Source of the DNA: a virus
Lineage: Duplodnaviria > Heunggongvirae > Uroviricota > Caudoviricetes
DNA: 64,000 nt
Reading direction: 5' to 3' (one strand)
Virus record (IMG/VR): IMGVR_UViG_2681813233_000007
The notes below the pieces were generated by a model. The model searched no databases, was not told where the DNA came from, and was given only the letters and a program-made list of their open reading frames with translations. A program made the position numbers and the translations under genes. Below are positions 1,208-46,177 of this stretch, one piece after another (the stretch's first letter is position 1; each line of letters starts with the position of its first letter).

Positions 1208-1315
1208 CGTTAGATATTTAATATTAATTTTCTAATATAATCATCTTTTTACCAGTCTATACAGTTTTAACATTCTCATTATCATCCCCTCGGTCATTTC
1301 CTGCCCGGGGGATTA

Positions 1316-1708
1316 ATGGAACAAATCAGCAGCGCAGAAATTGCGGATATCATGATCAGGGCTGACTGCTATCTGACAGTCACTGAAATTACCACTCTCG
1401 CCAAAGAAAAATACCCTCATCTCCATGTTTCACGAGTAAGTGTAACTAACATCATTCGTCATTTTGTTCGTTCAAGCAGGGCAATCTGTGAGCTGGATGA
1501 TCGTGTGTATCCACGAAAATACTGGCTACATGGTCTGAACGGATATCAGTTCAAGGTGCGCGGGCGCACGCCTGAATACGGTAGCTTACTGGTTAAAAAC
1601 TGTAGCAGGAAATCAGTCGAACAGGCGCGAAAAGAGCAACGAGAGCTGGTGGACATGGCGAATAAGCTGTGGAATGCCGCCGTTAAAAAGCGTGGTGTTG
1701 CTTTATGA
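1316..1708 (+). CDS. hypothetical protein immediately upstream of pacA
   Basis: ORF track; stop overlaps pacA start. Confidence 0.5.
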   Translation: MEQISSAEIADIMIRADCYLTVTEITTLAKEKYPHLHVSRVSVTNIIRHFVRSSRAICELDDRVYPRKYWLHGLNGYQFKVRGRTPEYGSLLVKNCSRKSVEQARKEQRELVDMANKLWNAAVKKRGVAL

Positions 1709-3069
1709 GTCTGGTTAATTGGGAGGAGCACCGCGCCCGCTTTATAGCGTTGCGTGAAGAAAAAGGGATCACTGTAAAGGAATACTGTGAGGAGCATGGC
1801 CTTAGCTTCAATACAGCCAGAAAGCATCTCAATATGAAAAAAAATGAGGTGCGGTCGCAGGTAAAGACAACAAAAAAAAGCACCAAATCACCTGAAAAAA
1901 AACGGGCGGGAAGAGCAACAAAAAAGCTGGAAGAGGGCGCAGAAAAAACAAAATTTACAGAAATTGACAATTCGCAGGGTGCAGGTTCTTTCCGAAGTAT
2001 GCCAAGAAAGAAAACTCCGGATCATGAAAGTAATACCAATAATAACAATGAGATAAAAGAATCTGTCAGGAGATCATTGCGCGAAAAAATGGCGAAAATG
2101 ATCCCCGAAGAAGATAAAAGCGCCCCAAAAATTGAGGGATCTTCAGCAATGATCCCTGGCGGTGCTGTGCAACGTGCCACATTGCCCACTACGAATGTGG
2201 CTCGCGACATGATGAAGAACGGCGCAGAAGAACACCTGCGGTTAGCAATTCAAATGGCGCAAGAGCGCGCACTTCAGTATCAAAGCATTGTTGATCAGGA
2301 GGCCGAACGTCTACAGGCGGAAATAGACGCCTTGGGCGATAAAGAGCCAGAAGGAATGCACCCTGGGCAGCGCCTTCTCGGTCTAATCAGTGACGCGGCC
2401 TACTACATGAATGATTTTATCAGTAGGTTGGCAGCTATATATCAGTCCGAACAAAAGCTGCGACAGGGGGATGAAAAGCTTCGTCAGAGCGCTCGCCAGC
2501 AAGCATTCAAAGAGGCTGAGGCCAGAGAAAAACTCGAATTAGCACGCCTACAGGCCGAACAGCGTGGCAAAGAGATTGAATATCGCATTGGCGCTGACGC
2601 ACGCGCAGCCAGAGTTATCGCCGCCGCTATACGTATGCGTGAGCGCGAGGAACTGGATGATATCGGTGTTGCTGAATACATCGAGCGCCAGGGGGTCAGC
2701 GTCCCGGCTATCCTCGCGGCGCGCGCGGCGAAAGCTATCACTCTTCTCGAACCACCTGTTTCTGACGTCAATGATGTTGATGATGAACAGCTGGACAAAG
2801 AGGCAAGGGAGTTTGCGACGCTTCAGGCTAACCATCCGCAATGGCTGGCAGAGCGCCGGGCGGATGTGGCAACCATTGTTGAAGAATTGGGGTGCGGAGA
2901 TTACGACCGCAATGGCGAGCGTAAAGCTGGAGAATTCGAGGCCAACGACGAAGAGCTGGATATTGACCCTTCGGCAACGGCTGAAATTTACGGTGATTAT
3001 GATGCATCTGATGCAGGGTATGACGCCGGAGATGATGATATCGCGATAGAACCGCCGGAGGATGATTAA
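1705..3069 (+). CDS. pacA: terminase small subunit PacA-like
   Basis: Position directly upstream of and overlapping the large terminase; N-terminal HTH-like region, long acidic C-terminal tail; internal GATC hexamer cluster typical of a P1-type pac site. Confidence 0.8.
   Translation: MSLVNWEEHRARFIALREEKGITVKEYCEEHGLSFNTARKHLNMKKNEVRSQVKTTKKSTKSPEKKRAGRATKKLEEGAEKTKFTEIDNSQGAGSFRSMPRKKTPDHESNTNNNNEIKESVRRSLREKMAKMIPEEDKSAPKIEGSSAMIPGGAVQRATLPTTNVARDMMKNGAEEHLRLAIQMAQERALQYQSIVDQEAERLQAEIDALGDKEPEGMHPGQRLLGLISDAAYYMNDFISRLAAIYQSEQKLRQGDEKLRQSARQQAFKEAEAREKLELARLQAEQRGKEIEYRIGADARAARVIAAAIRMREREELDDIGVAEYIERQGVSVPAILAARAAKAITLLEPPVSDVNDVDDEQLDKEAREFATLQANHPQWLAERRADVATIVEELGCGDYDRNGERKAGEFEANDEELDIDPSATAEIYGDYDASDAGYDAGDDDIAIEPPEDD
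2019..2155. other. candidate pac (packaging initiation) site: cluster of five GATC-containing hexamers inside pacA
   Basis: GGATCA 2019, AGATCA 2071, TGATCC 2099, GGATCT 2137, TGATCC 2150, plus TGATCA 2291; resembles the Dam-methylatable hexamer repeats of the P1 pac site. Confidence 0.4.
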
Positions 3070-4577
3070 TGGCTGGAGGGCGCAAGATTAAATGCGTCAC
3101 CAGCGATCCACGCTGGCGCGATATGGTAATCAAATACCGCTACAACTTTACCCAGGCTGTTGTCGATATTTTTGGGATGTTCCCCTCCCACCAGCAGCAG
3201 CAGATCATTCAGTCCGTGCAGGAAACGGGGAGTAGGACGACCGTCACGTCCGGACACGGAACGGGGAAGTCGTCCCTTACCGCGATGTTGCTGTTGATTT
3301 TCATGATCCTGTTCCCCGATGCCCGTGTCATCATTGTTGCTAACAAGATAGGCCAGGTAAAAACAGGCGTATTCAAATACGTTAAACAGTATTGGGCGAA
3401 TGCAGTTAAGCGTCATGGGTGGTTGCAGACCTATTTTGTCCTCTCTGACACCATGTTTTATGAGCGCTCCCGTAAGGGGATTTGGGAAGTTCTCTGCAAA
3501 GGTTATCGACTCGGCAACGAAGAAGCGCTGGCGGGGGAACACGCGGCACATTTGCTTCTAATTCTGGATGAAGCATCTGGTATATCTGATAAGGCGATCG
3601 GCGTAATGACCGGTGCTCTTACTGAAGAAGATAACCGGATGTTGATGCTATCCCAGCCAACAAGGCCAAGTGGTTATTTTTACGATTCGCACCATTCTCA
3701 AGCAAAAACCCCAGACAACCCGAAAGGGATCTGGACAGCAATTGTTCTTAACTCGGAAGAATCACCGTTCGTCACACCACAATTCATCAAGCAGAAGCTT
3801 CTGGAATATGGGGGGCGCGATTCTATTGAGTACATGGTCAAGGTGCTTGGTCAGTTCCCACGAGAAATTAACGGCTATTTGCTTGGTCGTGATGAATGCG
3901 ATCGCGCTGCTCGCCGCAAGGTGCTGTTGGAGAAAAACTGGGGATGGGTGGCAACGGCTGACGTTGGTAATGGGCGAGATAAGTCGGTCCTCAACATCTG
4001 CAAGGTATCTGGTCACAGGGATAAGCGGCGCGTTGTTAACTTTAAGGTAATGGAGATGCCTGGCACTATGGACCCATTGGCCTTTGCTGACTTCATATAT
4101 AACGAATGTACGCCGGAAAAATACCCGAATATAACAATCGCGGTTGATGCTGATGGTTTTGGTTCTGATACGTGTGCGCAGTTGGTGCGTCGTGGTGCGA
4201 ACCCGGTACGTATTCGGTGGGGAAAACCCATGTTTGCGAACAAAGACAGGGAGCGATTTGTTAATCAGCGTGCCTACGCAAATATTATGGCGCGAGATGC
4301 CATAAAGTCAGGGCGTATGCGGATAGACAGTGACCCTAAAACGGCAGAGCAAGCGTCAAAAATCCCCTTTTTACTGAATGAAGAAGGGAAAATGGCGATG
4401 ATGCGCAAAGAGCACATGCGGCAAAAGCTAAACATCAAATCGCCTGACCGATGGGATACCTACTGCTTCACTATGCTGGTGGACTATGTGCCTGCTAATG
4501 AAGATATTGGTGCCGAAATGGCAACTTTCCGAGATCAGGTTCTGGCGGATATCGAAATGCCGGATCTGGATATATAA
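3069..4577 (+). CDS. pacB: terminase large subunit PacB-like
   Basis: Walker A SGHGTGKS, Walker B LLLILDEA, C-terminal nuclease-like region; coupled to pacA. Confidence 0.9.
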   Translation: MAGGRKIKCVTSDPRWRDMVIKYRYNFTQAVVDIFGMFPSHQQQQIIQSVQETGSRTTVTSGHGTGKSSLTAMLLLIFMILFPDARVIIVANKIGQVKTGVFKYVKQYWANAVKRHGWLQTYFVLSDTMFYERSRKGIWEVLCKGYRLGNEEALAGEHAAHLLLILDEASGISDKAIGVMTGALTEEDNRMLMLSQPTRPSGYFYDSHHSQAKTPDNPKGIWTAIVLNSEESPFVTPQFIKQKLLEYGGRDSIEYMVKVLGQFPREINGYLLGRDECDRAARRKVLLEKNWGWVATADVGNGRDKSVLNICKVSGHRDKRRVVNFKVMEMPGTMDPLAFADFIYNECTPEKYPNITIAVDADGFGSDTCAQLVRRGANPVRIRWGKPMFANKDRERFVNQRAYANIMARDAIKSGRMRIDSDPKTAEQASKIPFLLNEEGKMAMMRKEHMRQKLNIKSPDRWDTYCFTMLVDYVPANEDIGAEMATFRDQVLADIEMPDLDI

Positions 4578-4604
4578 AGCCCCGCGATGCGGGGCCGGTT
4601 GTGA

Positions 4605-5642
4605 TTACCAGAGCTTCGCGGCGTACTGCGTTTGGGGGAATGTGTATCCGTAACGTTCTTCGATTGCTTTGCCGTATTTTTTACGAGCTTCATTCAGTTT
4701 AATGCCGGTCAGGTCGTCTCCAGAGGCCATCATTACGTCTAACAATTCCAGATCCATTTTATCCAGCCTTGCCATTGCTTCACGTGATGTACGTATCTTA
4801 CGTTCAATGATATGGCGAATAGCCGGATCGGCATCCTCCAGCATCTTAGCGGATTTCTGCTTAAGGCTTTCATTGCGAATATCGATGTTCCTTAAGATGT
4901 ACGACTTCGCAACGTAGCTTGGCTGGTGTTTTTCCAGGTCACGAACACGATATAAGTTAAAATCGCCGAGAAGGCTGCAAGGTACCGATTCGACGCCAGA
5001 ATAAATTGTAATGCTCCGGCGTTCACCAACATTATTGACAACGGGGATCGTTGTCTTCGGTAGTCTTGCGAAAACCAATGCGCCATGTGCGCCAACTCTA
5101 AAGCGAGAAAGGGCATTGCTGCCTTCGATGTTTGTTGTCAGCACAACATCTGTATATGCCTCTTTACGCGCCCGGTAGATCTCGCCTTCAGGCTCAGCTT
5201 CAAAGAAGCGCTGTTCTTCTTCAAGAGCACCTACGATTTGAGAAAAAACCCTATTTTTCAGGCTTTTCTTTATGATTTTGTCGTATTTTTTTAGCAATTG
5301 TTCACGTGTAAATGTACGTGTTGTTGTAGCGCTTTGCACAACGACATGCGTGCTTTGATTGGTGTCCTCAATGATGAATGGGATCGGAGAATATACAGAC
5401 TCAACAATGTTCGACGCTTTGCCGTCGGCATCGCGGCACATGTCAACGAAGGCTTTCCATTCAGCAAGACATTTTTCAGCTTCTTCTAATATGTTTTGGT
5501 CATGCGTTAATGCAACATGGCGGAATTCCTCGCCAGCATAACTGGTATCATGGAAAACAGAGTTTGCGACCACCAGCTCTTTCCACCGTTCAGCGGTTTG
5601 CAGGAACCGTTTGTACTCTTTCTCGATCGACTTCTTACTCAT
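4605..5642 (-). CDS. hypothetical protein in the c1 position (candidate immunity repressor)
   Basis: Divergent from the recombinase gene, between pacB and the rox site as c1 is in P1; operator-like box TTTTCTAACA 20 bp upstream of its start; no sequence-level confirmation. Confidence 0.4.
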   Translation of the reverse strand: MSKKSIEKEYKRFLQTAERWKELVVANSVFHDTSYAGEEFRHVALTHDQNILEEAEKCLAEWKAFVDMCRDADGKASNIVESVYSPIPFIIEDTNQSTHVVVQSATTTRTFTREQLLKKYDKIIKKSLKNRVFSQIVGALEEEQRFFEAEPEGEIYRARKEAYTDVVLTTNIEGSNALSRFRVGAHGALVFARLPKTTIPVVNNVGERRSITIYSGVESVPCSLLGDFNLYRVRDLEKHQPSYVAKSYILRNIDIRNESLKQKSAKMLEDADPAIRHIIERKIRTSREAMARLDKMDLELLDVMMASGDDLTGIKLNEARKKYGKAIEERYGYTFPQTQYAAKLW

Positions 5643-5852
5643 TATTCCTACTCGATTTAGTTTTCTAACATAAAATTACTATGACAAATTTATGTCGAAT
5701 AACAGAGTGAGTAAAGGATCGAACTGTGATTTTTTGTCATCAATTTTAGAAAACCAACCGTAGAAACCACACTTCGCAAATTAAAGACCATGAAGGCAAC
5801 GTGTTACTGGTCATCATCAATCTATGATGGATTTAAAAAAATCGGCATTTTA

Positions 5853-5884
5853 TAACTTTAAATAATTGGCATTATTTAAAGTTA
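5853..5884. other. rox-type recombination target site (14-bp inverted repeats, 4-bp spacer)
   Basis: TAACTTTAAATAAT-TGGC-ATTATTTAAAGTTA; perfect 14-bp inverted repeats; reverse complement equals the rox sequence as I recall it; lies about 150 bp upstream of the recombinase gene. Confidence 0.85.
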
Positions 5885-6036: not shown

Positions 6037-7065
6037 ATGAGTGAATTAATTATCTCTGGCAGTTCCGGTGGTTTTCTGCGCAACATTGGCAAAGAGTACC
6101 AGGAAGCCGCAGAAAACTTTATGCGGTTCATGAATGACCAGGGGGCTTATGCGCCGAATACTCTGCGCGACCTCCGGTTGGTGTTTCATTCCTGGGCGCG
6201 CTGGTGTCACGCTCGCCAGCTTGCCTGGTTTCCGATCTCACCAGAAATGGCCCGCGAGTATTTTCTTCAGCTGCATGATGCCGATCTGGCTTCGACCACC
6301 ATTGATAAGCACTACGCCATGCTGAACATGCTGCTTTCGCATTGTGGCCTTCCGCCACTTTCGGATGATAAAAGTGTTTCTCTGGCTATGCGGCGCATCC
6401 GGCGCGAAGCGGCAACTGAAAAAGGCGAACGAACAGGCCAGGCTATACCGCTTCGGTGGGACGATCTGAAACTGCTCGACGTCCTGTTGTCCAGGTCAGA
6501 ACGGCTGGTGGACCTGCGCAACCTGGCTTTTCTCTTTGTTGCATACAATACGCTGATGCGTATGTCGGAAATATCGCGTATTCGTGTAGGTGATCTGGAC
6601 CAAACAGGTGACACTGTCACGCTACATATTTCACACACGAAGACAATAACGACCGCCGCCGGGCTTGATAAGGTGCTTTCCCGTCGCACTACCGCTGTGC
6701 TGAATGACTGGCTGGATGTTTCCGGGCTTCGCGAGCATCCTGACGCTGTGCTGTTCCCGCCGATACACCGTAGCAATAAGGCCAGGATCACGATAACGCC
6801 CCTTACTGCACCTGCAATGGAGAAAATATTCAGCGACGCCTGGGTGTTGCTGAATAAAAGAGATGCTACGCCAAACAAAGGAAGATACCGGACGTGGACC
6901 GGGCATAGTGCACGCGTCGGGGCCGCTATTGATATGGCTGAAAAGCAGGTGTCTATGGTGGAGATCATGCAGGAAGGAACCTGGAAGAAACCGGAAACAC
7001 TTATGCGGTATCTTCGCCGTGGCGGCGTGTCTGTGGGGGCTAATAGCCGCCTGATGGATTTGTAA
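6037..7065 (+). CDS. dre: Cre-family tyrosine recombinase (Dre-like)
   Basis: 342 aa; alignable to Cre along its length (e.g. NLAFL..AYNTL.R..EI.RIRV.D, W.GHSARVGAA.DMA, EIMQ.G.W); adjacent rox site. Confidence 0.9.
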   Translation: MSELIISGSSGGFLRNIGKEYQEAAENFMRFMNDQGAYAPNTLRDLRLVFHSWARWCHARQLAWFPISPEMAREYFLQLHDADLASTTIDKHYAMLNMLLSHCGLPPLSDDKSVSLAMRRIRREAATEKGERTGQAIPLRWDDLKLLDVLLSRSERLVDLRNLAFLFVAYNTLMRMSEISRIRVGDLDQTGDTVTLHISHTKTITTAAGLDKVLSRRTTAVLNDWLDVSGLREHPDAVLFPPIHRSNKARITITPLTAPAMEKIFSDAWVLLNKRDATPNKGRYRTWTGHSARVGAAIDMAEKQVSMVEIMQEGTWKKPETLMRYLRRGGVSVGANSRLMDL

Positions 7066-7138
7066 ATTAAATTTCTAACACATCTTTTTAGATTAACATC
7101 TTTGCTGTAAAGTACCCTCGCCTATTTAGGAGGGTGCT

Positions 7139-7483
7139 TTGCAGAGTCAAATCACGGAATCAAGACGCTTCAAGGTGGATGGTTACACCGTAACCTTCGC
7201 CGCTGGTGTTAAGAACAGTCATGCTGTCGTTGTGTTCGGCATCATGACCGGGCTTGAGGCCGTCCCTGTGTTTACCCTCGAAAAAAACTGGCGAAATCTG
7301 GAGGAAGCAGAAAGCTACGTCCGGAAAGTAACCATCATTGCCGCCGAAAAACTCCTGGCCCACTATCAGGAAAATTATCGCACTATGGTCGAGAAGATTA
7401 ATCTCGCTTTCACTCGCCCCACTACCGGCTTTATTGCACCGGATACTAATGCAGGTCGATATCCTGCAAGGGGGCGTCGGTGA
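7139..7483 (+). CDS. hypothetical protein
   Basis: ORF track; operator-like box ATTTCTAACA at 7080-7089 upstream. Confidence 0.5.
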   Translation: MQSQITESRRFKVDGYTVTFAAGVKNSHAVVVFGIMTGLEAVPVFTLEKNWRNLEEAESYVRKVTIIAAEKLLAHYQENYRTMVEKINLAFTRPTTGFIAPDTNAGRYPARGRR

Positions 7484-7956
7484 AAACTTATTACCCATCT
7501 CTGAATTGTTACCCGTCTTCCTATCCAGAATTATCCGGGAAGCTGTTAGCTCTATTAGCTAAAGCACCTACGGAATGGTTTAAGCCAGTCGTTATCAATC
7601 CACACTTCCTGGATTACGGAACTGTTCGCACTCGTAACGAACTCAAAAACCTACTGGCGCATGGATTCATTCGACACCGTGCCGGGAAAGGCTATCAGTT
7701 AGCGATTGCGCCAGAAGAGGCCGTGCGGCTATTCGCATATCGTGACAGCCAGACAAAAGCTCGGGTAATAGCTCAAATACTTCATAACGGCAGCACCTAT
7801 GCCCGCCAGTTTGGCGGCGACACGTCGCAGTTCTTGCGGGCGGTGCGATCGCTGGAGGAGCAAGGAGTTATTGAAAGTTCCTGTCTTCCTGTTCCTACCG
7901 TTCCACATATCAAACGTCGGGTTTACACCTTCACGCAGAGAGCTAAAAAACAATGA
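7480..7956 (+). CDS. hypothetical protein
   Basis: ORF track; overlapping stop/start with flanking genes. Confidence 0.5.
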   Translation: MKTYYPSLNCYPSSYPELSGKLLALLAKAPTEWFKPVVINPHFLDYGTVRTRNELKNLLAHGFIRHRAGKGYQLAIAPEEAVRLFAYRDSQTKARVIAQILHNGSTYARQFGGDTSQFLRAVRSLEEQGVIESSCLPVPTVPHIKRRVYTFTQRAKKQ

Positions 7957-8447
7957 TTTACGTAAAAGTGAAACGCCTACATCCGGCAGCAAAACTTCCA
8001 GCTTATGCCACCTCCGGATCGGCGGCGATGGATTTTGAGGCTGTTGAAATAAAACCATGCGTCGATAGCAATGGTGCAATTTCCTCAAGCTGGTGGGTGT
8101 ACACCGGACTGGCTATGGAGATCCCGCCCGGCTGGTGTCTGAAACTCTATCCGCGCTCCGGATTGGGCTGCAAAAAACATACTCGCCTGGCTAACTGCGT
8201 AGGAATTATCGACTCCGATTATCGCGGTGAAATCATGGCAAAACTGATTACTGATCCCGGCGGGGAAGGCGTTTGTCTCAAGCCTGGAATGGCTGTCATG
8301 CAAGGCATTTTTGAGCGTGTTGAACAAGTCTCACTAGTCGAGGTTGAGGAACTCAACGAAACGGAACGTGGTGCTGGTGGCTTTGGTAGCACATCGGAAG
8401 ACCACTTTGAAATCAAGCGCACACCGCTTCAGTACGCAAAGTTTTAA
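7953..8447 (+). CDS. dut: dUTPase (trimeric dUTP pyrophosphatase)
   Basis: Motifs PRSGLG, GIIDSDYRGEI, RGAGGFGSTS. Confidence 0.85.
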   Translation: MIYVKVKRLHPAAKLPAYATSGSAAMDFEAVEIKPCVDSNGAISSSWWVYTGLAMEIPPGWCLKLYPRSGLGCKKHTRLANCVGIIDSDYRGEIMAKLITDPGGEGVCLKPGMAVMQGIFERVEQVSLVEVEELNETERGAGGFGSTSEDHFEIKRTPLQYAKF

Positions 8448-8461
8448 GCAGAGGAAAGGCT

Positions 8462-9163
8462 ATGAATTACATGACAACGAAAGAGCTTTTTAAGTTCCTT
8501 CCCAAATACAAAGCTCACAAAAACGTTAGTGCATCGAAAATCAAAAATGTTGTTATTTTCGGAGTAACTGCTTCCCCACTTTGGGGCTGCATCGAACTCG
8601 TTGAACCAAAAGGGGCAACAGTTTGTGTTGACGCAATTTTTTTACAAAAACACCGACCAAAAACTGGCGGGTATCTGATCGTTTATGAAAACGGTTATCT
8701 GTTCTATGCCCCGGAGAAACCATTTGAGCAATGCTATGGCCTGGTTAACGACGCCTCCGAAAATGGGGTATCGCTCAGCATTGAAGGTCACAATGGGGTG
8801 ACATTCATTACAGCCAGGGACGTAACTATTTCTGCTGGCGGTATCGCTACTCTACAAGAAGAAATCGACCTTGAAGCAGCCGACTTTTCTGACGCGCTGA
8901 TGTGGCTGAAGGATGGCAAGAAAGTTGCTCGACGCGGGTGGAACGGCGAAAACCAATTCTGCTGGCTGGTTCCTGACAAACAGGGTGCTTCAAGACTAAC
9001 CCCTATAAAACATGCCGCAAACGGAGAGCTTGAAATCAATTTCGACTCTCCTCTTGCTCCTTATGGTGCGCATTTCGTTTTGAAAAATGCACAAGGTGTA
9101 GTTGTTCCATGGATGCCTTCTGTAGGTGACCTGCTGGCATGTGACTGGTTTGTAGTGGAGTGA
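8462..9163 (+). CDS. protein with C-terminal DUF2829-like (Tad2-like) domain
   Basis: C-terminal ALMWLKDGKKVARRGWNG ... DLLACDWFVVE; N-terminal ~140 aa of unknown function. Confidence 0.55.
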   Translation: MNYMTTKELFKFLPKYKAHKNVSASKIKNVVIFGVTASPLWGCIELVEPKGATVCVDAIFLQKHRPKTGGYLIVYENGYLFYAPEKPFEQCYGLVNDASENGVSLSIEGHNGVTFITARDVTISAGGIATLQEEIDLEAADFSDALMWLKDGKKVARRGWNGENQFCWLVPDKQGASRLTPIKHAANGELEINFDSPLAPYGAHFVLKNAQGVVVPWMPSVGDLLACDWFVVE

Positions 9164-9169
9164 TTTAAC

Positions 9170-9976
9170 GTGGAAAATACTAAAGCAATTCAATACCGCT
9201 TGCGTAATGGCCTGCTGGTGGCTGTTAACGCCGACATGTCACTGCCGTTTGACACGATTGAACGCACCATAATGACGTATCTCGGCTTTAATGAAGAACT
9301 GAATGAAGAGCATGGCGTAGCTATATGGAGTGATGCAGACAGCGGCGTTCGTCGTTACATCACCGCCAGGGGCAAAGACTACTCTCTGGAAGAACTGTTT
9401 GCCCTTGCGCAGTCTTTCGAATGTGTAGCATTAGACCTGTTTAATGATCCTGCTATAGCGCAACGACTTATACGCGAGCTTGGGCTATCCGTTACACCAA
9501 TTATCTTTAAAAATGGCAGCCTGACTGGCACATGGCGCGTAGAACGCATATCAAACTACCTTCCATATAACCGACAGTTAAATGGAGTAATCTCCGGCGT
9601 TAATCAGCCCGTAGCATGTGAAAATGTAAACCTGGTTGTCGCTGTTTTGGCAACCGCATGTCGTGTTATCGGTTTGGCTAAACAGGCATTTATTCATTTC
9701 CCAAATGGTGCAGAAGGTAGCGCAGAGATTATCGCGTGTGATTTCGAATTTACCTGGATGCTACGCGAATATCTGGACCAAACAGTATTCCGTGCCGAAG
9801 AACTGGATATGTATATCACGTCAACGATTCCAGACGATGTGCGAGCTGAAGCAATCGCTACAGCCAGGGCGAAATGCCGTGCGGCGATTGCAGAACAGGC
9901 CAAAGAAGAACAGTCCGATGAAGTCGCGGCAGATGTGGAGGCAGAGGTAGCGGAGGATGCTGATGCTGACGCCTAA
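9170..9976 (+). CDS. hypothetical protein with acidic C-terminal tail, coupled to terminase-like paralogue
   Basis: ORF track; C-terminus EEQSDEVAADVEAEVAEDADADA; 20-nt overlap with next gene. Confidence 0.5.
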   Translation: MENTKAIQYRLRNGLLVAVNADMSLPFDTIERTIMTYLGFNEELNEEHGVAIWSDADSGVRRYITARGKDYSLEELFALAQSFECVALDLFNDPAIAQRLIRELGLSVTPIIFKNGSLTGTWRVERISNYLPYNRQLNGVISGVNQPVACENVNLVVAVLATACRVIGLAKQAFIHFPNGAEGSAEIIACDFEFTWMLREYLDQTVFRAEELDMYITSTIPDDVRAEAIATARAKCRAAIAEQAKEEQSDEVAADVEAEVAEDADADA

Positions 9977-11063
9977 AAACATCACCGAATTACCAGAGTG
10001 GAGAGAGCTGGTAAGCAAATATAGCCATGACTGGGCATTAGCAGCAGAAGAGTTGATGGGTGTTAAGTTAACCCACCAGCAAAAGCTAATTGTTGAGGCG
10101 ATTCAACAAAAAGGTTCAGCAGTCAGCGTCACCACTCCTGAAGGGATAGGCCAAAAGACGGTTATCGCTATAATTAGTATTCTTTATACAATCCTGATGC
10201 CTGAGTCTAAAACGGTTATTGTTTCCCCAAAGTTCTATAATTGTCGCAGGCAAGTTATCCAATACATAAGTACGTATTGGGATAGAGTCAGTAACAGAAT
10301 CCCATTGCTGGGAGAATATTTTAAAGTCGATGGAAACGGCATCAATCATCGTTACCGGGAATATTGGGGCTGCGAAATTAAGCCATATCACCGAAATTAT
10401 GAGGAAGGTTTCGGTGGATATTATGCTGAACATCTTTTAATCATTGTTACGGAGGCGGCTCTTGCTGGCGATCGGCTATTCAGCATGTTAAGAGCATCGT
10501 TAGTAAGTGACGATTCACGTATACTTTTAATGTCCGCTCCTTCAGAGGAGGAGCATGGACACTTTTACGATTCCCATCATGGTCGTGCTAAATCAGAAGA
10601 AAATCCATGTGGTATTTATACAGCCATCAAGCTGAACGCAGAAGATACCCCCATTATTTCTCAAGGTTATCTTGATAACATTGCAGAAATATATGGTGGT
10701 AAAAACAGCGATTACTACCGTCGTATGATTCTTGGTGAGTTTCCTGGTATTAGGGAGGCTGTTCTTGAATCAGATATGCCGAAGACAATGCGCTTTTCGA
10801 TGCCTGATGGTAGTGAATGGATAATGCCATTACGAGTGATAGCCCGGCATCATGCACAGCACCACGCCAAAAAACATGGCGTTACAACATTGGAGTGGTT
10901 GAAATCGCACACCATTCCACTCTTCACTGCAGATCACAATGCTATCGTTGAGTGGGCAAAAACAATTCCGTGGGAGAATGTTGCTGAATACGCCCACATG
11001 CTAAAACCGCCGAAAGACAGGCAAGAAATTAGCTGGCTGACAGCAGAAAAAATCATTGAGTGA
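9957..11063 (+). CDS. terminase large-subunit ATPase-domain paralogue with degenerate Walker motifs
   Basis: Alignable to 3069..4577 over ~250 aa (HQQ..I, LLII, HGHFYDSHHGRAK vs SGYFYDSHHSQAK, YGG....Y.....LG.FP); Walker A lysine replaced (GIGQKT), Walker B D replaced (IIVTEA); no nuclease domain. Confidence 0.7.
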   Translation: MLMLTPKNITELPEWRELVSKYSHDWALAAEELMGVKLTHQQKLIVEAIQQKGSAVSVTTPEGIGQKTVIAIISILYTILMPESKTVIVSPKFYNCRRQVIQYISTYWDRVSNRIPLLGEYFKVDGNGINHRYREYWGCEIKPYHRNYEEGFGGYYAEHLLIIVTEAALAGDRLFSMLRASLVSDDSRILLMSAPSEEEHGHFYDSHHGRAKSEENPCGIYTAIKLNAEDTPIISQGYLDNIAEIYGGKNSDYYRRMILGEFPGIREAVLESDMPKTMRFSMPDGSEWIMPLRVIARHHAQHHAKKHGVTTLEWLKSHTIPLFTADHNAIVEWAKTIPWENVAEYAHMLKPPKDRQEISWLTAEKIIE

Positions 11064-18582: not shown

Positions 18583-18680
18583 AATGCATACCGACTCTGT
18601 TTTGTTCCGAGCGGTAAAATAATATGTTAGAAAACTAAAATCAATGTTCTAACGCATTTTTGAGTGCGTAAGTGATTTGA

Positions 18681-22936: not shown

Positions 22937-23181
22937 AACATAAGCACTGCGAAAAGCTCAATACCAAGCTCAAGTAGCGCCAACGCCCCGAAAAACAACA
23001 CATAGAACAGGCCAATCTCATTCACAGATGGCTGGTGGATCGCACTTAAAGCTATAAGCATCATGTCCTCCAAACAGTTATCAGGAATGATATTAATGTT
23101 TTGTGTTAGAAAATCAATTTTGAATATCTAACCATTTTGATCAATCATAGAAAAATCGCTGAAAAGTAAGAGGCAGCCATC

Positions 23182-23760
23182 ATGCAGAAACAGAGCTACT
23201 GGGAGAAACAGAGACAAAAAGCCATGCAAAGATTGGCTGACCCGGCCTGGCGAGAGGAACAAAGGGCAAAGCGCCTTCAACAAGCTCAACGCCAGCAGCA
23301 GCGAGCGAGAGAAAAAGCCGCATCGCCTGAATATCGGCAAAAGAGAATTGAAAAAGCAAAGCAATATGACCAGCGGAGAAAAGAGAAAGCTGTATCCGCT
23401 CCGTCCAAAAAAACACGCACGTCACGCGGCCTGAAGGGCAGATCACTCACAGCCGATGAACGCCGGATACAGACCGCTATCGGTACTCTCCCCTGCATTG
23501 CCTGCCATATTCACGGGCAACATAGCCCAGTGGTATCCCTGCACCATATCTTCGGGAGAACGGCAGAGAACGCGCATAAATATGTCCTCCCTTTGTGTAA
23601 ATGGCACCACCAGTACGCAGCGCCAGCCGAGGTCCGAGAACAATATCCCTGGCTGGTCCCTGTTCATGCTGATGGAAAAATAGGCGGAAAAGCAGATTTC
23701 ATACGGCACAATGCCGATGAAATGGCGTTGTATCAGATGGCAATTGAATTGATAAATTAG
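23182..23760 (+). CDS. ref: Ref-like HNH endonuclease (recombination enhancement function)
   Basis: Highly charged N-terminal half, C-terminal LPCIACHIHG...SLHHI...LCKWHHQYAAPAEVREQYPWLVPVHADG as in P1 Ref. Confidence 0.8.
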   Translation: MQKQSYWEKQRQKAMQRLADPAWREEQRAKRLQQAQRQQQRAREKAASPEYRQKRIEKAKQYDQRRKEKAVSAPSKKTRTSRGLKGRSLTADERRIQTAIGTLPCIACHIHGQHSPVVSLHHIFGRTAENAHKYVLPLCKWHHQYAAPAEVREQYPWLVPVHADGKIGGKADFIRHNADEMALYQMAIELIN

Positions 23761-24091
23761 TTTTCTAACATTTTAAGTTGAATTGGAAATTTCTCCGATG
23801 TACATTCACTACCGATTGGCACACCGGTCAACTTTTTGAGACAAACTGTTTAGTTTTTCGTATTATTGCCGCCGCCATACCTATGGCGGTGCAATATAGG
23901 TGGCTGAAAAGCCCCCGTTGACTCACGGTGTTCCAGCCTTTATTGCGCCGCCACCAGACCGTGGAACAGTCGATGGCGGCTCCGAAAGCAAGGAGTCACT
24001 ACACTATGAACAACTACAGTCTTTTCCCATCACTCGTCGTCCACCACTCACGCGATAATCTGCATTCTTTACTCGCGCTGGGGGTGTCAAA

Positions 24092-24299: not shown

Positions 24300-24386
24300 T
24301 TCTACGGCACCTTAGAAAAACGGGTGCCGGGATTGGAACCCCGGATAATGTCAAAGGCGACACAGACGCCGAAAGCGTCTTTTTTT
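24300..24386 (+). ncRNA. candidate small structured RNA ending in an intrinsic terminator (c4-like antisense regulator candidate)
   Basis: Hairpins GGCACC...GGTGCC and CCGGG...CCCGG, then GACGC-CGAAA-GCGTC + T7; near-complement of hairpin 2 at 24489-24500. Confidence 0.3.
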
Positions 24387-24571
24387 GTGTCATGCCATCG
24401 CACAGCCATACGTAGCGTTTAGCTCAGAGATCAATGGTAGTGCTGGCTGGGCTGCCGAAAGGCAGGCCGGTTCCCTTTGACGCCGGTAGTTCCAACCCAG
24501 TCAGTGCTACCGCCATTGAGATTGGAACCTCACGCGGTAGCTCCTTAACTTAGTCAAAGGAGGCTGCCAAT

Positions 24572-27493: not shown

Positions 27494-27724
27494 TGCACCG
27501 TTCCTTCATGCAATCAAAATGACTTTTATGTTATAAAAATAATCAGCCAAATCAACATGATTTAGGCCAAATTTCTGTCAAAAAATAAAATCCACAAAAA
27601 GTGGTTGACACTATTTTGGAAATCACAAACTGCACATAATCCATCGCGCTAACGGCTCCCGTTGAAGGTTCTTTTGACGATTAACTTTCAGCCGAAGCGC
27701 GGTAGGGAGTCATAACGCCAAAGC

Positions 27725-32026: not shown

Positions 32027-32176
32027 TAGTCATTTGATCCTCCGTGATGATTACCGAATGCCATAACTATAGCGCACCGTTGCACTGTGCGCAAGTGCAT
32101 TTTATGAATTCCCCCTCCTTCATCCAAAATCACAATCTCCCGAAAATCTTCCTTTCGATACCTGACAGATCGACCT

Positions 32177-35378: not shown

Positions 35379-35437
35379 AAAATGCACCAGTTTGTGTTAG
35401 ATAATTAATATGTATTTTCTAACACAAATGGTGAGAC

Positions 35438-38663: not shown

Positions 38664-40325
38664 TTAACCTAACTTCGCCCAGGTATCACGCAGCCCAACG
38701 GTGCGGTTAAATACCGGTTTTTCCGCCGTAGAATGGCGGCTGTCGAGGCAGAAATAACCTTCACGCTCAAACTGGAATGCTTTACCCGCTACCGCTTCTT
38801 TCAGCGACGGTTCAGCAAAGCCCTGTTTGATCACCAGCGATTCCGGGTTAATCACCGACAGGAAATCATCCGCAGCACCTGGGTTCGGCACGTTGAACAG
38901 ACGATCGTACAGGCGGATTTCAACCGGCAGCGCATGTGCCGCGCTCACCCAGTGAATAACGCCTTTCACTTTACGACCATCTGCCGGATCTTTGCTTAAG
39001 GTGTCGGCGTCATAAGTACAGAAGATGGTGGTGATATTGCCTTCGGCATCTTTCTCCACGCGTTCAGCCTTAATGACGTAAGCATTACGCAGACGCACTT
39101 CTTTACCCAGCACCAGACGTTTGTACTGCTTGTTAGCTTCTTCGCGGAAATCGGCGCGGTCGATCCAAATCTCACCGCTAAACGGCACCTGACGGCTACC
39201 CATTTCCGGTTTGTTTGGATGGTTCGGCATGGTGACCATTTCGCCTTCGCCCTGGTAGTTTTCGATAACCAGTTTCACCGGATCGATAACCGCCATTGCG
39301 CGCGGGGCATTTTCGTTGAGATCTTCACGGATGCAGGATTCCAGCGACGCCATCTCAATGGTGTTGTCCTGCTTGGTCACGCCGATGCGTTTGCAGAACT
39401 CACGAATAGAAGCCGCAGTGTAACCACGACGACGCAGACCGGAAATGGTCGGCATACGCGGGTCATCCCAGCCTTCAACGTGCTTGTCGGTCACCAGCAG
39501 GTTCAGCTTACGCTTGGACATCACGGTGTATTCCAGATTCAGGCGCGAGAATTCGTACTGGCGCGGGTGAACAGGAATGGTGATGTTGTCCAGTACCCAG
39601 TCATACAGACGACGGTTGTCCTGGAACTCAAGCGTACACAGAGAGTGCGTAATACCTTCCAGCGCATCGCTGATGCAGTGGGTGAAGTCGTACATCGGGT
39701 AGATGCACCACTTGTTGCCAGTCTGGTGGTGTTCAGCAAACTTAATACGGTACAGCACCGGGTCGCGCATCACGATAAACGGCGAAGCCATGTCGATTTT
39801 CGCACGCAGGCAGGCTTTACCTTCTTCAAAACCACCGGCACGCATTTTTTCGAACAGCGCCAGGTTCTCTTCAACGCTGCGGTCGCGGTACGGGCTGTTT
39901 TTACCCGGCTGCGTCAGGGTGCCGCGGTATTCGCGGATCTGTTCCGGCGTCAGTTCGTCAACATACGCCAGGCCTTTGTTGATCAGTTCAACAGCATAGG
40001 CATGGAGTTTGTCAAAATAATCGGAGGAGTAACGGATGTTGCCAGACCAGTGAAAACCTAACCATTCAACGTCGTTTTTAATCGACTCAACGTACTCGAT
40101 ATCTTCTTTTACCGGGTTAGTGTCGTCGAAACGCAGGTTGCACTGGCCTTTATAGTCCTGGGCGATCCCGAAGTTCAGGCAGATAGATTTCGCATGACCA
40201 ATATGCAGATAGCCATTCGGTTCCGGCGGGAAACGGGTATGTACTGTGGTGTGCTTACCACTGGCCAGATCTTCATCGATGATCTGACGAATAAAGTTAG
40301 TCGGGCGGGCTTCTGCCTCACTCAT
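38664..40325 (-). CDS. glnS: glutaminyl-tRNA synthetase
   Basis: 553 aa; HIGH motif (LHIGHAKS), KMSKS-type VMSKRK; N-terminus [24 protein letters not shown] recognised as enterobacterial GlnS. Confidence 0.95.
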
Positions 40326-41783: not shown

Positions 41784-41802
41784 TAAACCAGCACATCTTC
41801 TG

Positions 41803-42147: not shown

Positions 42148-42154
42148 TACCTCG

Positions 42155-43135
42155 TTAACCGATTGCTTTCAGGCCATGAACAAGAGCAAGTTGCGGGTCA
42201 TCCGCCACGAAGAAACGGTCATCACGAATATTAACTTGCTCGCGAATTGCATCTGCCACCAGCGGTGCGCCACCACCGATCACCATGACATGCGTATATC
42301 CTTTAAAGTCGCCAATCACATCAAGAACTCGGGTACGCAGACGGTCAATGCTTGCGGCAATGGCCTTTTTCACATCACCAATCGCTGATGGGTCATTGAT
42401 ATTGTCGTTCAGATAATCTTCATCGTGGCGGTTAATAATGAGCTGATCAACATTGTAATTTGACGTTTCGGTATTGGCCCTTGCAAGTGCTTGCCTTACT
42501 TCCCTGGTGACCAGTGATACACCAAGATTCGAATCGCCAAAAACACGGGAAACTGCCGTCATTTGCCCAGCGACCATTGAAACATCAAGGGTAGTTCCAC
42601 CCAAATCGACGATAAGAACAGAATGGACAGGGTTCAGATTGTCGCACAGGCCAATTCCTGCCGGAATAGACTCCGGTCGTACCGTAACTTTCTTAATCGT
42701 GAACACATTGCCTTTATTCAGCGTGACGGGGCGCATAAGGCTGGCTTTCTTGCGCTCGATGTTATCGAGATTGTATTGCGCGTCGTCGTCGTAAAACTCC
42801 GCCAGAGGCAGCGTGACCACAATTTCTACTTCCTGCGGCTCAATACCGCTTGTCAGCAGGGCATGGTGAACAGCCAGGACGTTAAGCGGGCTGTATTGCC
42901 ATTCCACGTTATTCGTCGGCAGAACATCTGGCGAGATCAAATCATACGAATACTTCTCGTCGTCAATGACATAGTTAAACGGCTTGCCAGCACCAAATGT
43001 TGCTGACCATCCGCGCTTAAAGCTGTTAGGACTGATGTGAGTGCGAGTTTCCCCGTCGTGCTCCCACAGCATTTTGATATTGGTTGAACCATCATCGATA
43101 AAAATGCGCATCTTCTTGCTCCACTTCTGAGACAC
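42155..43135 (-). CDS. parM: ParM/StbA actin-like segregation ATPase
   Basis: IFIDDGSTNIKM, HISPNSF, LIVDLGGTTLD, VMVIGGGA motifs; 326 aa. Confidence 0.85.
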   Translation of the reverse strand: MSQKWSKKMRIFIDDGSTNIKMLWEHDGETRTHISPNSFKRGWSATFGAGKPFNYVIDDEKYSYDLISPDVLPTNNVEWQYSPLNVLAVHHALLTSGIEPQEVEIVVTLPLAEFYDDDAQYNLDNIERKKASLMRPVTLNKGNVFTIKKVTVRPESIPAGIGLCDNLNPVHSVLIVDLGGTTLDVSMVAGQMTAVSRVFGDSNLGVSLVTREVRQALARANTETSNYNVDQLIINRHDEDYLNDNINDPSAIGDVKKAIAASIDRLRTRVLDVIGDFKGYTHVMVIGGGAPLVADAIREQVNIRDDRFFVADDPQLALVHGLKAIG

Positions 43136-43137
43136 AT

Positions 43138-43310
43138 TTGAGAATCAAAATGTAATTTTAAAAGAGAAGCACCCAAAAATCCACACCAAACGAGACAAAA
43201 AAGAGCACTTGTTGAGTTTATTTTGAGAATATCTTAATCACCCACTGAATGATGGCCTGATAGTGAGATTTATTTGAGAATGAATTGAGAATACAAAAAT
43301 ATTCTGAAAT
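43138..43310. repeat. parC-like centromere repeats upstream of parM
   Basis: TTGAGAAT at 43138, 43223, 43274, 43285 plus inverted ATTCTGA. Confidence 0.4.
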
Positions 43311-43377
43311 TTAACTCTCCGTTTGAATGACGAAATAACAAAGTGATGACAATAGGAGGATAACCAGGAGGTGAAGA

Positions 43378-43662
43378 ATGAGCGCAATAGCCACCAGCGA
43401 CACCCTTTGTTCTGGTCACGGAGGATTTCCGCCGCGACTGGTAGCTGAAACCGTTCCCTGGTTCACCGTTAACGGTAAGCCAGTTGTTGTAGATGGTGCC
43501 ATGTTTCCCAGTCACACTGACGGTAACAGTGCACACCCAGGGGCAGCTGTATCGACGCGAGTATGGTTTTCGATAGGTGGAAAGGGAGTTGTCTGTGTAG
43601 GCGATCCGCTTTCTTGTGGTTCTGTTATCGCCAACGGCGAGGATATTTTTCAGGTTGCATAA
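43378..43662 (+). CDS. PAAR-like spike-tip protein
   Basis: 94 aa; CSGHGG ... VNGKPVVVDGAM ... IGGKGVVCVGDPLSCGSVI. Confidence 0.5.
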   Translation: MSAIATSDTLCSGHGGFPPRLVAETVPWFTVNGKPVVVDGAMFPSHTDGNSAHPGAAVSTRVWFSIGGKGVVCVGDPLSCGSVIANGEDIFQVA

Positions 43663-44468
43663 TGCTTGATTCAATAGGTGAAGTTAAAGCCTTCAAAATT
43701 CTGTCAGATGCCGGTATCTCTACACCAGAATCTATAACCATAAGCCGGGCAGCTTCTGTAAAAGCCTCATCGCTCGCCAGCGCCATACAGGGAATAGTTC
43801 ACGCCGATAAAACCTATCCTGATTCTGTTTCGGCCTGGACTACTCAATTGCTTGGCTTTTCTGAACAGCTCAATGAGGCCAGCAAAGCGTCTTCATTACT
43901 GGCTGATTCTCTTTCCCCATACACCAAGCCATCAGAGTTGTTACAGATGAAGATTGGCTGGGAATGCTACGCAAAAGGTAACGAGCTGACCCCCATACCT
44001 GCTTTCGCCCTTGTTGAGGGAATGGGGAATGTTTCCATTCCGCAATCTCTAACGGACGCATTGACGGCGCTAAAACTTGATGCTCTGAAAACCGCCATGA
44101 ACGCCATTAACGCAAAAATTGAAGCTGCCGGAAGTGCTGGTGGTGGTGAAAGCAATGGTGGACAGGGTGGTGCTGGGGGCGCTCAGGCTCCAGTCATTAC
44201 TCAGGATGAAATTGATGCTTTACGGGAAGCAGTGACAGCCGCCGAAGTTTTACTCTCCGAAATTAACTCAGCAAGTGAGGGTGTCGTAGCCCTTACAGGT
44301 CGCATTAAAACGTCAACCACTCAGGCAACCAAAGGTTTAGAGAACGCTGTCGCCATCACGTTAACTGGTTCTCTACTGGATGATGCAGTAATGAGTCCGG
44401 CAATCAGTTTAATCATGCCACAAGGCGTTATCGATGCGCTCCAAAAGAACACCAAAAAGGAATCATAG
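43662..44468 (+). CDS. hypothetical protein coupled to PAAR-like gene
   Basis: Start set at ATG overlapping upstream stop (TAATG); Gly/Ala-rich linker. Confidence 0.5.
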   Translation: MLDSIGEVKAFKILSDAGISTPESITISRAASVKASSLASAIQGIVHADKTYPDSVSAWTTQLLGFSEQLNEASKASSLLADSLSPYTKPSELLQMKIGWECYAKGNELTPIPAFALVEGMGNVSIPQSLTDALTALKLDALKTAMNAINAKIEAAGSAGGGESNGGQGGAGGAQAPVITQDEIDALREAVTAAEVLLSEINSASEGVVALTGRIKTSTTQATKGLENAVAITLTGSLLDDAVMSPAISLIMPQGVIDALQKNTKKES

Positions 44469-44524
44469 AAGCACCACTTAGGCACACAAAAGGATGTAAA
44501 TTGGTACATGTTTAACACCAAAAA

Positions 44525-44998
44525 ATGAACCTGGAGAGGATGGTTTTGAAAAAGATAATTTTGATTGTAATTGCGCTTTTAGCCATTTCTGGAATTTACC
44601 GAACAACGACGGCAGTTATCGAACACATCAGGTATGTCCGATCGCTTGAAGACTCAAAATCACAACTGGAAAGCACGAACAACACGCTTTCTACCGCATT
44701 ACAGTTAAGTGAGAACGCTCGCTCAGCCATGCTGACCGAAAACGAAAGAATTAAAGCACTGGAAAAGGAGTACCAGCGCAAAACAGCAGAACTGAATGCC
44801 AACCTAATCAAACAACGAGAGGAAAGCCAGAATGAAATCACTCGCCTTGAAAATGCGTTACGCCGTGCTGGGATTAACGATGTGCGTGTGCCTGATGACG
44901 TTATCAGGATGCAGCGGGAACGGGCAAAAGCCATCAACCAGCGTGCCAGTGAAAATTACCGTAGAAGCCACCAGCAAGCCGCAGGCAAATCTGATTGA
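44525..44998 (+). CDS. Rz-like inner-membrane spanin
   Basis: N-terminal TM helix then coiled-coil; out-of-frame lipoprotein ORF overlaps its 3' end. Confidence 0.55.
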   Translation: MNLERMVLKKIILIVIALLAISGIYRTTTAVIEHIRYVRSLEDSKSQLESTNNTLSTALQLSENARSAMLTENERIKALEKEYQRKTAELNANLIKQREESQNEITRLENALRRAGINDVRVPDDVIRMQRERAKAINQRASENYRRSHQQAAGKSD

Positions 44999-45164
44999 TT
45001 ACTCCCCTTGTTTAGTGCCAGAGGACACGCCAGTGCTGTTAAACAAGTATCCGACATACGCTGAACAGTTATTCAGCACGATCGACGAATGCAACCAACG
45101 AAACGCACTGAATAACCAAAGAAACAGGGAGATTTGGGAAGGGAAGGGGGATCAAGGCTCCTGA
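44853..45164 (+). CDS. Rz1-like outer-membrane lipoprotein spanin (overlapping frame)
   Basis: Lipobox LMTLSGC; start taken at internal ATG 44853. Confidence 0.45.
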   Translation: MRYAVLGLTMCVCLMTLSGCSGNGQKPSTSVPVKITVEATSKPQANLIDYSPCLVPEDTPVLLNKYPTYAEQLFSTIDECNQRNALNNQRNREIWEGKGDQGS

Positions 45165-45610
45165 AGCCAGATGTCCTGGCTGTCAGCTTCTTCGAAACCG
45201 TGACAGACGTTAAAGTCACTCAAGCGATACTGACGCTGACGGCCTCTATTTCGCTCATGCCAATGCATATATCCACCAGCAAATGCCAGCGGACAATCAC
45301 TATAGTCTATGTAACCAATACCATTCCCCAAACGTGCTTCGCGCGCACCGGCTTTCCAGGACAGTAGAAAAGAGTCACGATCCGCCAGCATAACAACAAA
45401 ATCGTCCGGATCTCCGATACAGTGAAGAATACCTGCCTTACATAACTGCTTGAGCGCTTTGGACTGGCTCAGGATGTCTTCTCCGTAATACTGAAAACAA
45501 TCATCAACAACAGCGGGATAGCCTGCCGGGGGATTCAGGCTGGTTGGTATAGCTGACGCGATCGCCAGCATTAAGCGATATTGTGTTTTTGATGGGTTAA
45601 CGTGACTCAT
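45152..45610 (-). CDS. hypothetical protein
   Basis: ORF track. Confidence 0.5.
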   Translation of the reverse strand: MSHVNPSKTQYRLMLAIASAIPTSLNPPAGYPAVVDDCFQYYGEDILSQSKALKQLCKAGILHCIGDPDDFVVMLADRDSFLLSWKAGAREARLGNGIGYIDYSDCPLAFAGGYMHWHERNRGRQRQYRLSDFNVCHGFEEADSQDIWLQEP

Positions 45611-45626
45611 TTTGTCCCTTGTTTAC

Positions 45627-46019
45627 TCATTGTCGCCATGCATTTTTTAACTCAGGAATATCTGCCATTTCAATTAACTTGCGAAGTCCAGCACTGACTT
45701 TCCCATTGCCAACCATAGCAAGCCAATCTCTTACAGCTTTCGGCATGTAGAGCGTTGCAGTTACCGGCTCTTCAACCCTGGCAGGACATCCGCATACAGG
45801 CCATTTAATTGATTCCATAACTTCGGATGCCGGGGTGAGGGCGGGGACATTGAGTATATATCTACCAGAAAACTGGATAACGATCCGTTCAGCGAGCGAG
45901 AGTATCTCACTTTCGGCAAGAATTGATGCCAACTGCGCCTCAACAAGAAAGCGACTTGTTGTGTTCAGAGAGTGGCTCTTAGCGCCATTTTTATACGAAA
46001 CAAAGATTCGATACGCCAT
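45627..46019 (-). CDS. hypothetical protein
   Basis: ORF track; operator-like box just upstream at 46035-46044. Confidence 0.5.
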   Translation of the reverse strand: MAYRIFVSYKNGAKSHSLNTTSRFLVEAQLASILAESEILSLAERIVIQFSGRYILNVPALTPASEVMESIKWPVCGCPARVEEPVTATLYMPKAVRDWLAMVGNGKVSAGLRKLIEMADIPELKNAWRQ

Positions 46020-46177
46020 AACTCTAATGATTTGTGTTAGAAAACTAAAATTAAATCACATAACAACATGTGTGTTAATAGATTTTATTTTACTAAACCT
46101 ATTGACTAAATCACAAAGTAGGTATTGTTAGCCCGTCAAAAGAACCTTCACGCCGCGCCCGAATTTAGGGCTTAACC

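Follow-up and report, generated by a model that had tools for sequence, protein, structure and literature searches.

The region analysed here is a 64,000-nucleotide stretch of viral DNA (IMG/VR record IMGVR_UViG_2681813233_000007; the window, to which all positions refer unless another genome is named), and the element in question is a short box, TGTTAGAAAA, that recurs between its genes. Colinearity with phage D6 (MF356679) identifies the window as a D6-like plasmid prophage and a distant relative of P1. Positions 1-5868 are the reverse complement of D6 1-5868 with 99.6% identity, and beyond 5868 the window is colinear with D6 descending from position 91159, at 88-99% identity and with several segments replaced. 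The gene order begins with lpa-pacA-pacB (1316-4577), followed by c1 (4605-5642, complementary strand), rox and the cre-like recombinase gene dre (6037-7065), and then the early, immunity, tail, head and replication modules. By sequence, the product of 4605-5642 is a C1-family protein. Operators are annotated in neither D6 GenBank record, and a full-text literature search turned up no earlier description of them; it is possible that D6 operators have already been noted in the literature.

Six exact copies of TGTTAGAAAA are present in the window where 0.15 were expected, a number reached in none of 100 shuffles, and three further copies carry one mismatch (TATTAGAAAA, TGTTAGAAAT and TGTTAGATAA; Table 1). 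The repeat described in a first-pass annotation of this DNA is therefore real, and all of the sites that it placed exist, but its positions 5662 and 7081 were wrong by up to 10 bases, and the copy at 7071 has one mismatch. The sites at 18625 and 46035 agree fully in an extended form, TGTTAGAAAACTAAAAT, from which those at 5654 and 23754 differ by two mismatches. A 17-bp weight matrix (consensus TGTTAGAAAAYTAAWWT, 16 bits) located 12 half-sites at eight loci, all of them intergenic or touching a stop codon. The scores were bimodal, with the half-sites at 18-25 bits (14-24 bits when each was left out in turn) and the next best match in the window at 11.7 bits. The intergenic DNA, 4.8 kb in all, yielded 10 hits scoring 15 bits or more, against 0.07 in first-order Markov simulations of the same DNA; since this model keeps the non-coding composition, the enrichment withstands correction for A+T content. 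Among 58 distinct sites from five genomes, which were themselves picked with the 17-bp matrix, information content decreases beyond 17-19 bp. The unit is an asymmetric 17-bp half-site that combines a GTTAGA core, almost invariant, with an arm rich in A and T.

Half-sites occur in two arrangements, each at four loci. At the monovalent loci the half-site stands alone, and at the bivalent loci two inverted 17-mers share 4 bp to form a 30-bp palindrome with the cores outermost. The arrangement GTTAGA-N16-TCTAAC was found three times in perfect form and once with one mismatch, against 0.11 expected in the window, and core spacings of 10-22 other than N16 gave nothing beyond chance matches with two mismatches. 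These palindromic partners had been missed in the first-pass annotation, which took the copy at 35395 for a weaker box of its own; it is instead the second arm of a bivalent site with the copy at 35415, and the four bivalent loci share one design. Palindromes of this kind could form 10-bp stems, and in some comparisons the homology between relatives begins exactly at the box, so that the palindromes might act as RNA hairpins (terminators, processing sites or antisense targets) or as recombination or module-boundary sequences with no repressive role. We regard this as very improbable, given that half of the loci are single asymmetric half-sites incapable of forming a hairpin, that the stems are A/U-rich with no consistent T-run, that none of the sites coincides with a mosaic breakpoint against D6, and that the palindrome centres change without compensation while the cores stay fixed.

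Table 1. Putative operators and associated features. Rows refer to the window unless another genome is named; scores are those of the 17-bp matrix.
Feature	Position	Strand	Half-site sequence and score	TGTTAGAAAA copies	Context	P1 counterpart
lpa	1316..1708	+			late-promoter activator; PF25716 BPP1_LPA, E 5e-57; 31% identical to P1 Lpa	
c1	4605..5642	-			presumed repressor binding these sites, 345 amino acids; 100% identical to D6 C1	
Bivalent site	1208..1237	.	1208-1224(+) CGTTAGATATTTAATAT, 21.4 bits; 1221-1237(-) TATTAGAAAATTAATAT, 22.9 bits; N16, 1 mismatch	1228-1237(-), one mismatch	upstream of lpa	Olpa
Monovalent site	5654..5670	-	TGTTAGAAAACTAAATC, 21.2 bits	5661-5670(-), exact	12-28 nt before c1 start, in c1 orientation	operators upstream of c1/coi
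Degenerate distal half-site	5744..5753	+	TTTTAGAAAA		83 bp upstream of the c1-proximal site and inverted to it	
Monovalent site	7064..7080	-	TGTTAGAAATTTAATTT, 24.1 bits	7071-7080(-), one mismatch	at stop codon of cre/dre recombinase gene	Ossb, upstream of ssb-isaA
Bivalent site	18625..18654	.	24.4 + 18.5 bits; perfect GTTAGA-N16-TCTAAC	18625-18634(+), exact	between ppp and pdcB	OpmgT
Bivalent site	23104..23133	.	23.8 + 18.0 bits	23104-23113(+), exact	49 nt upstream of ref	Oref
Monovalent site	23754..23770	-	TGTTAGAAAACTAATTT, 24.8 bits	23761-23770(-), exact	overlaps final 7 nt of ref	Omat (overlaps ref end) and Oc4
Bivalent site	35395..35424	.	24.6 + 20.7 bits; perfect cores	35395-35404(+), one mismatch; 35415-35424(-), exact	in 59-nt gap between gene 5 and hrdC	Odmt, upstream of uhr-hrdC-dmt
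Monovalent site	46035..46051	+	TGTTAGAAAACTAAAAT, 24.4 bits	46035-46044(+), exact	16 nt from start of leftward orf52 homologue (45627-46019); target uncertain	
D6 site	22467		19.7 bits		upstream of repL	compare OrepL
D6 site	21260		25.6 bits		just downstream of repL, upstream of second icd-antirepressor copy	compare Orlf, Oc4
D6 sites	10315 and 9066		24.8 and 22.9 bits		either side of pmgS	compare OpmgRa,b
AAATCACAAACT box (at most 1 mismatch, co-oriented)	27620-27631	+			mat	
AAATCACAAACT box	32127-32138	+			gene 7	
AAATCACAAACT box	46108-46119	+			gene 23	
AAATCACAAACT box	62041-62052	+			R	
AAATCACAAACT variant	near 54668				pmgB	
CCTTAGAAT boxes, Citrobacter plasmid (examples)	5778, 13617, 18377, 26034, 26214, 39799					

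The sites were compared with those of P1 using record AF234172, the source of the annotated C1 operators and late promoters, and orthologous genes were confirmed by tblastn. For seven of the eight window loci, the gene that follows or adjoins the site has a P1 orthologue with an annotated C1 operator. The site at the recombinase stop codon precedes a rightward operon (7139-9976) whose last gene is an isaA homologue (48% identity to P1 IsaA), and it is kept in the relatives L008-L010, L014 and L015. The site between ppp and pdcB, also conserved in relatives, lies upstream of a leftward pdcB-pmgT-like operon with PdcB and PmgT homologues 39% and 68% identical to the P1 proteins. The palindrome before ref is invariant over its full length in four genomes, the flank upstream of it being unrelated. 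The site overlapping the end of ref lies upstream of small open reading frames, isrK, C4 RNA, icd and an antirepressor gene; an isrK-like small RNA (24307-24385, plus strand) and a C4 antisense RNA (24430-24517, plus strand; RF01695, 77 bits) stand directly before icd-antirepressor, and the Icd homologue is 61% identical to P1 Icd. A c4-icd-antirepressor operon is therefore found downstream of a C1-type operator, as in P1 immI. The bivalent site in the gene 5-hrdC gap ends 13 nt before the start codon of hrdC, whose product is 54% identical to P1 HrdC. D6 carries a second icd-antirepressor copy, which is outside the window. At the end of the isaA operon, an open reading frame (9957-11063, plus strand) shares 35% identity with P1 PacB, the terminase large subunit, over the N-terminal half of the latter; it is a second, truncated terminase-like gene distant from pacAB.

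The first-pass annotation had also placed boxes upstream of the c1-position gene, ref, hrdC-dmt, the pmg cluster and the structural operon. Its assignment of a box to the structural operon is questionable, since gene 23 has a late-promoter-like box of its own at 46108, 57 nt downstream of the site at 46035 (the same place in D6 reads TGTTAGAAAACCAAAAT). This second box, AAATCACAAACT with a -10-like TAnnnT, also decides on the idea that TGTTAGAAAA is itself a late-promoter element for Lpa, equivalent to the -22 box of P1. Lpa is only 31% identical to its P1 homologue; the P1 -22 box (AAGTGACTT) is not enriched in the window, so that a different late box would be expected, and one TGTTAGAAAA copy, at 46035, does lie upstream of the capsid gene. 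However, it is AAATCACAAACT that holds the late-promoter positions: D6 has eight copies, co-oriented with the genes that they precede (the lysin gene, prt, lydA, R, pmgB, gene 23, gene 7 and mat), in positions that parallel LPlyz, LPpro, LPdar, LPs, LPsit, LP23 and LPmat of P1. TGTTAGAAAA, on the other hand, fronts early and immunity genes including lpa, is often palindromic, abuts start codons, and is absent from late operons. AAATCACAAACT is probably the D6-type late promoter, which contradicts such a role for TGTTAGAAAA and makes it highly unlikely; the 46035 site need not be invoked as a promoter for gene 23, which has a AAATCACAAACT box of its own.

A blind test was carried out with a matrix trained on the window sites alone and run on the part of D6 missing from the window (27 kb). 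The sites that it predicted stand next to repL, the second icd-antirepressor copy and pmgS (Table 1), again in positions comparable to P1 operators, and bring the complete D6 set to 12 loci.

C1 relatives were found in 149 plasmid records of a plasmid collection, with identities of 100, 97, 90, 80, 70, 62, approximately 30 and 24%. In plasmids with C1 identities of 90, 80 and 70% the motif is unchanged at matching places, and alignment of these plasmids showed divergence in the flanks and in the centre of the lpa palindrome but none in the half-site cores or in their N16 spacing. At the lpa operator itself the half-site cores are kept in relatives and the palindrome centre is variable. Two loci from public assemblies, with C1 identities of 51% and 44%, still have TGTTAGAAAA at three places, namely after cre, before lpa and, in two copies, before c1. 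In the c1 leader, the proximal site and the ribosome-binding site are invariant across four genomes, and this proximal site lies downstream of a conserved promoter, predicted from the alignment, with -35 TTTACT, a 17-nt spacer and -10 TAAATT. At the degenerate distal half-site, TTTTCTAA is an invariant block between diverged flanks, and at the 51% and 44% loci the same position holds a full TGTTAGAAAA core. All six genomes compared have the proximal half-site at -25 to -31 and its inverted distal counterpart at -111 to -123; the spacing between the two is 85-98 bp.

The window motif is absent from Leclercia plasmid NZ_CP042508 (L011), whose C1 is 30% identical. A dispersed AAAGCCTTAGAATCTA-like box is found there instead, but this pattern was derived post hoc, and the third-clade 9-mer, with one mismatch allowed, occurs eight times in the Leclercia locus against 5.0 expected, which is not significant. 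The claim for a third clade of C1 therefore rests on an independent locus of that clade, in Citrobacter plasmid NZ_CP099368 (L013), which has six exact copies of CCTTAGAAT, all intergenic. These are located upstream of hrdC and ref, and downstream of cre, pmgS (two copies) and a head-processing gene, with one-mismatch copies upstream of c1. CCTTAGAAT is probably the operator of this third clade (approximately 30% identical C1). A Pantoea plasmid had neither a TGTTAGAAAA-type nor a CCTTAGAAT-type motif. The strongest argument available for C1 as the protein that binds the boxes is this constancy of the regulon map, combined with a site that switches from one repressor clade to another.

The motif, with its statistics, architecture, positions and conservation, and the membership of C1 in the P1 C1 family are direct observations. 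From these results we infer that C1 is the binder, that it represses by binding, and which promoters it controls; we put the probability that the boxes are operators of the prophage repressor C1 (4605-5642), in a heteroimmune, D6-type relative of P1, at roughly 80%. The suggestion of the first-pass annotation that these dispersed C1-type sites make up the immunity regulon is supported by the P1-like positions, the blind prediction in D6, the conservation, and the co-variation with C1 clade. Much less likely, although still the most serious competitor, is that the boxes are genuine regulatory sites for a different DNA-binding protein, encoded by the phage or the host, and that C1 recognises other sequences. 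Phage proteins without an assigned function are numerous; those of 240-815, 815-1207 and orf52/53, for example, have no Pfam family or no P1 homologue. Against it stand the gene-by-gene parallel between the site set and the C1 operator map of P1, and the switch of the motif with C1 clade while the neighbouring genes remain orthologous. A scan of the intergenic DNA also gave no second over-represented motif fit to be the C1 site, finding besides the box only the late-promoter-like box, Chi and the RepA iterons.

In P1, which serves as the model, repL, lpa and further functions of the lytic cycle are repressed by C1 bound at approximately 22 dispersed operators, and an antirepressor under the control of c4 counteracts C1 (PMC8546580). 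If the boxes described here are C1 operators, C1 in a lysogen would occupy the eight window loci and silence promoters that overlap the sites or lie just upstream of them. Under its control would be lpa, hence indirectly all late genes, together with ref, hrdC-dmt and the c4-icd-antirepressor, pdcB-pmgT and isaA operons, and in D6 also repL and pmgS. Of these, lpa, downstream of the 1208-1237 site, is presumed to be the key lytic target. The proximal leader site would limit the synthesis of C1 itself, aided by the inverted distal site approximately 85 bp upstream, and at hrdC the palindrome fills the short gap before the start codon. The sites before c1 and hrdC end 12-13 nt from the start codons, as expected of an operator rather than an activator site. 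At ref, a possible -35 element, TTGAAT, lies inside the palindrome, and a conserved GATCAATCATAG block follows downstream. No homologues of Coi or Lxc were found in the window or in D6 by tblastn with the P1 proteins (E 1e-3 or better), nor is there a coi-like open reading frame upstream of c1. Because these two proteins are absent, induction would proceed through the icd-antirepressor operons. Just before lpa, a hairpin (CCCCTCGG...CCCGGGGGA, 1286-1315) overlaps the ribosome-binding site and is invariant in four genomes; it may control lpa translation.

Several observations weigh against the assignment of the boxes to C1. Sigma-70 scans around the sites gave fewer matches than shuffles and placed no good promoter over most sites; at lpa, the best predicted -35 lies approximately 20 bp downstream of the operator. 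The orientation of the half-sites relative to the target gene varies. For the site at 46035 there is neither a counterpart in P1 nor a clear target, and orf52 and orf53 are without P1 homologues. The lack of Coi and Lxc homologues means that the circuit differs from that of P1, and the pairing of C1 with these operators is drawn from analogy and co-variation.

The likeness to P1 is one of organization. In both phages the operator is a 17-bp asymmetric unit, either alone or in inverted pairs that overlap at their central A/T arms and have the cores at the outer ends (Obanab served as the P1 comparison), and in both many loci are spread over a plasmid prophage of approximately 90 kb, with 12 loci in D6 and at least 14 annotated operator loci in P1, for which 22 operator sequences have been reported (PMC8546580). 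Common targets are lpa, c1, ref, the 3' end of ref, hrdC-dmt, c4-icd-ant, repL, pmgR/S, pmgT and the isaA operon, and the repressors belong to the same protein family and are encoded beside a lox/rox-recombinase module. The sequences of the operators are a different matter. The first-pass annotation took the box for a recognisable variant of the P1 operator, which lacks statistical support: the P1 consensus ATTGCTCTAATAAATTT has no match in the window at up to three mismatches, alignment of the matrix to the P1 operator in both orientations was no better than with column-shuffled matrices (p=0.59), and the two C1 proteins are 21% identical. Bivalent sites overlap by 6 bp and total 28 bp in P1, against 4 bp and 30 bp here, and they are rare in P1, whereas they make up half of the loci here. 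The only sequence common to all three clades is a TTAGA core, within ATTAGAGC (reverse strand) in P1, TGTTAGAAAA in D6 and CCTTAGAAT in the third clade. P1 has this core on one side of the A/T arm and D6 has it on the other, and half-site orientation relative to P1 at orthologous sites is mixed. The situation resembles that of the lambdoid phages lambda, 434 and P22, in which homologous repressors with diverged specificity act at the same regulatory positions and define immunity groups, although lambdoid operators are symmetric dimer sites at two loci, whereas those described here are dispersed, asymmetric half-sites.

The C1 protein is related to P1 C1 with an E value of 2e-8, and both belong to phrog_1678 (E 3e-170 and 3e-140); near-identical homologues carry the domain PF27008 Phage_P7_repressor_C1. 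At 345 amino acids it has a C-terminal helical extension of approximately 100 amino acids that P1 C1 lacks. A profile search of 1.84 billion representatives identified a family of 83, whose members share a conserved core (approximately residues 5-245); R159 and P88 are invariant. None of the solved structures is related to C1 by sequence. An AlphaFold2 model built from a nine-sequence alignment (predicted local distance difference test score, 78.8; predicted template modelling score, 0.46) was searched with Foldseek, and the top four matches were all Tus-Ter complexes (E 7e-7 to 2e-5, probability 1.00, 273-306 aligned columns), the next match having an E value of 0.05. Tus, a monomeric protein of Escherichia coli whose Ter binding sites are asymmetric, was the sole good match. 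The same model gave zero matches in a viral structure library. A relationship between C1 and Tus found no support by sequence in a profile search of PDB sequences or in a Pfam scan, which gave no Pfam Ter match. The best hhalign alignment of the two is colinear (C1 12-234 with Tus 70-309, P 0.004) at a probability of only 8%, and this weak alignment places R157 and R159 opposite K229 and K231 of Tus.

The resemblance of C1 to Tus may thus serve as a lead, resting as it does on one AlphaFold model. We consider it somewhat short of an even chance that C1 repressors of the P1 and D6 type have the Tus fold, with monomers binding 17-bp half-sites in the manner of Tus on Ter and two monomers binding the 30-bp palindromes. 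The boxes do not appear to match the Ter consensus, and the role here would be transcriptional repression, with nothing to suggest fork arrest. The stretch TGTT..AACTAAA resembles the Ter core, but with the register off by 2 bp. We considered whether the monovalent sites are oriented, as in a fork trap, about the position facing the plasmid origin, and rejected this because the sites are too few and include exceptions. A literature search found no paper that connects Tus with a C1 repressor. If the fold were confirmed, monomer binding would explain the hitherto unexplained asymmetry of P1-type operators, and with the C1 proteins a fold otherwise known only from the replication-fork trap of enterobacteria would for the first time be found in transcriptional repressors. 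The fold would bear on the origin of Tus as well, pointing to a common origin with a repressor family of mobile elements, and the TTAGA core with its clade-specific flanks (ATTAGAGC, TGTTAGAAAA and CCTTAGAAT) would amount to a simple specificity code.

The site set is very probably the C1 regulon that would be expected for a P1-like group, with a site sequence that differs from that of P1. It provides an operator sequence, a half-site and bivalent architecture, and a likely regulon for the D6 phage-plasmids, which are common in E. coli, Salmonella and Shigella. It could be used in predicting immunity groups, in constructing reporters and orthogonal repressor-operator pairs, and in annotating early and late promoters, and it makes three C1 clades comparable, in which the regulon map appears constant and the site specificity altered.

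Three further features of the window were observed. Chi (GCTGGTGG) occurs 38 times, for example at 1078, 1645 and 4475, against 1.6 expected; such strong over-representation is a known feature of P1. The sequence ATGTGTGCTG is repeated 10 times, at 53287-53500 and 54434-54520, flanking a repA-like gene (53509-54372, complementary strand), and these repeats are probably replication iterons like incC and incA of P1. A full-length glutaminyl-tRNA synthetase gene is located at 38664-40325 on the complementary strand, corresponding to a GlnS-like gene in the D6 annotation.

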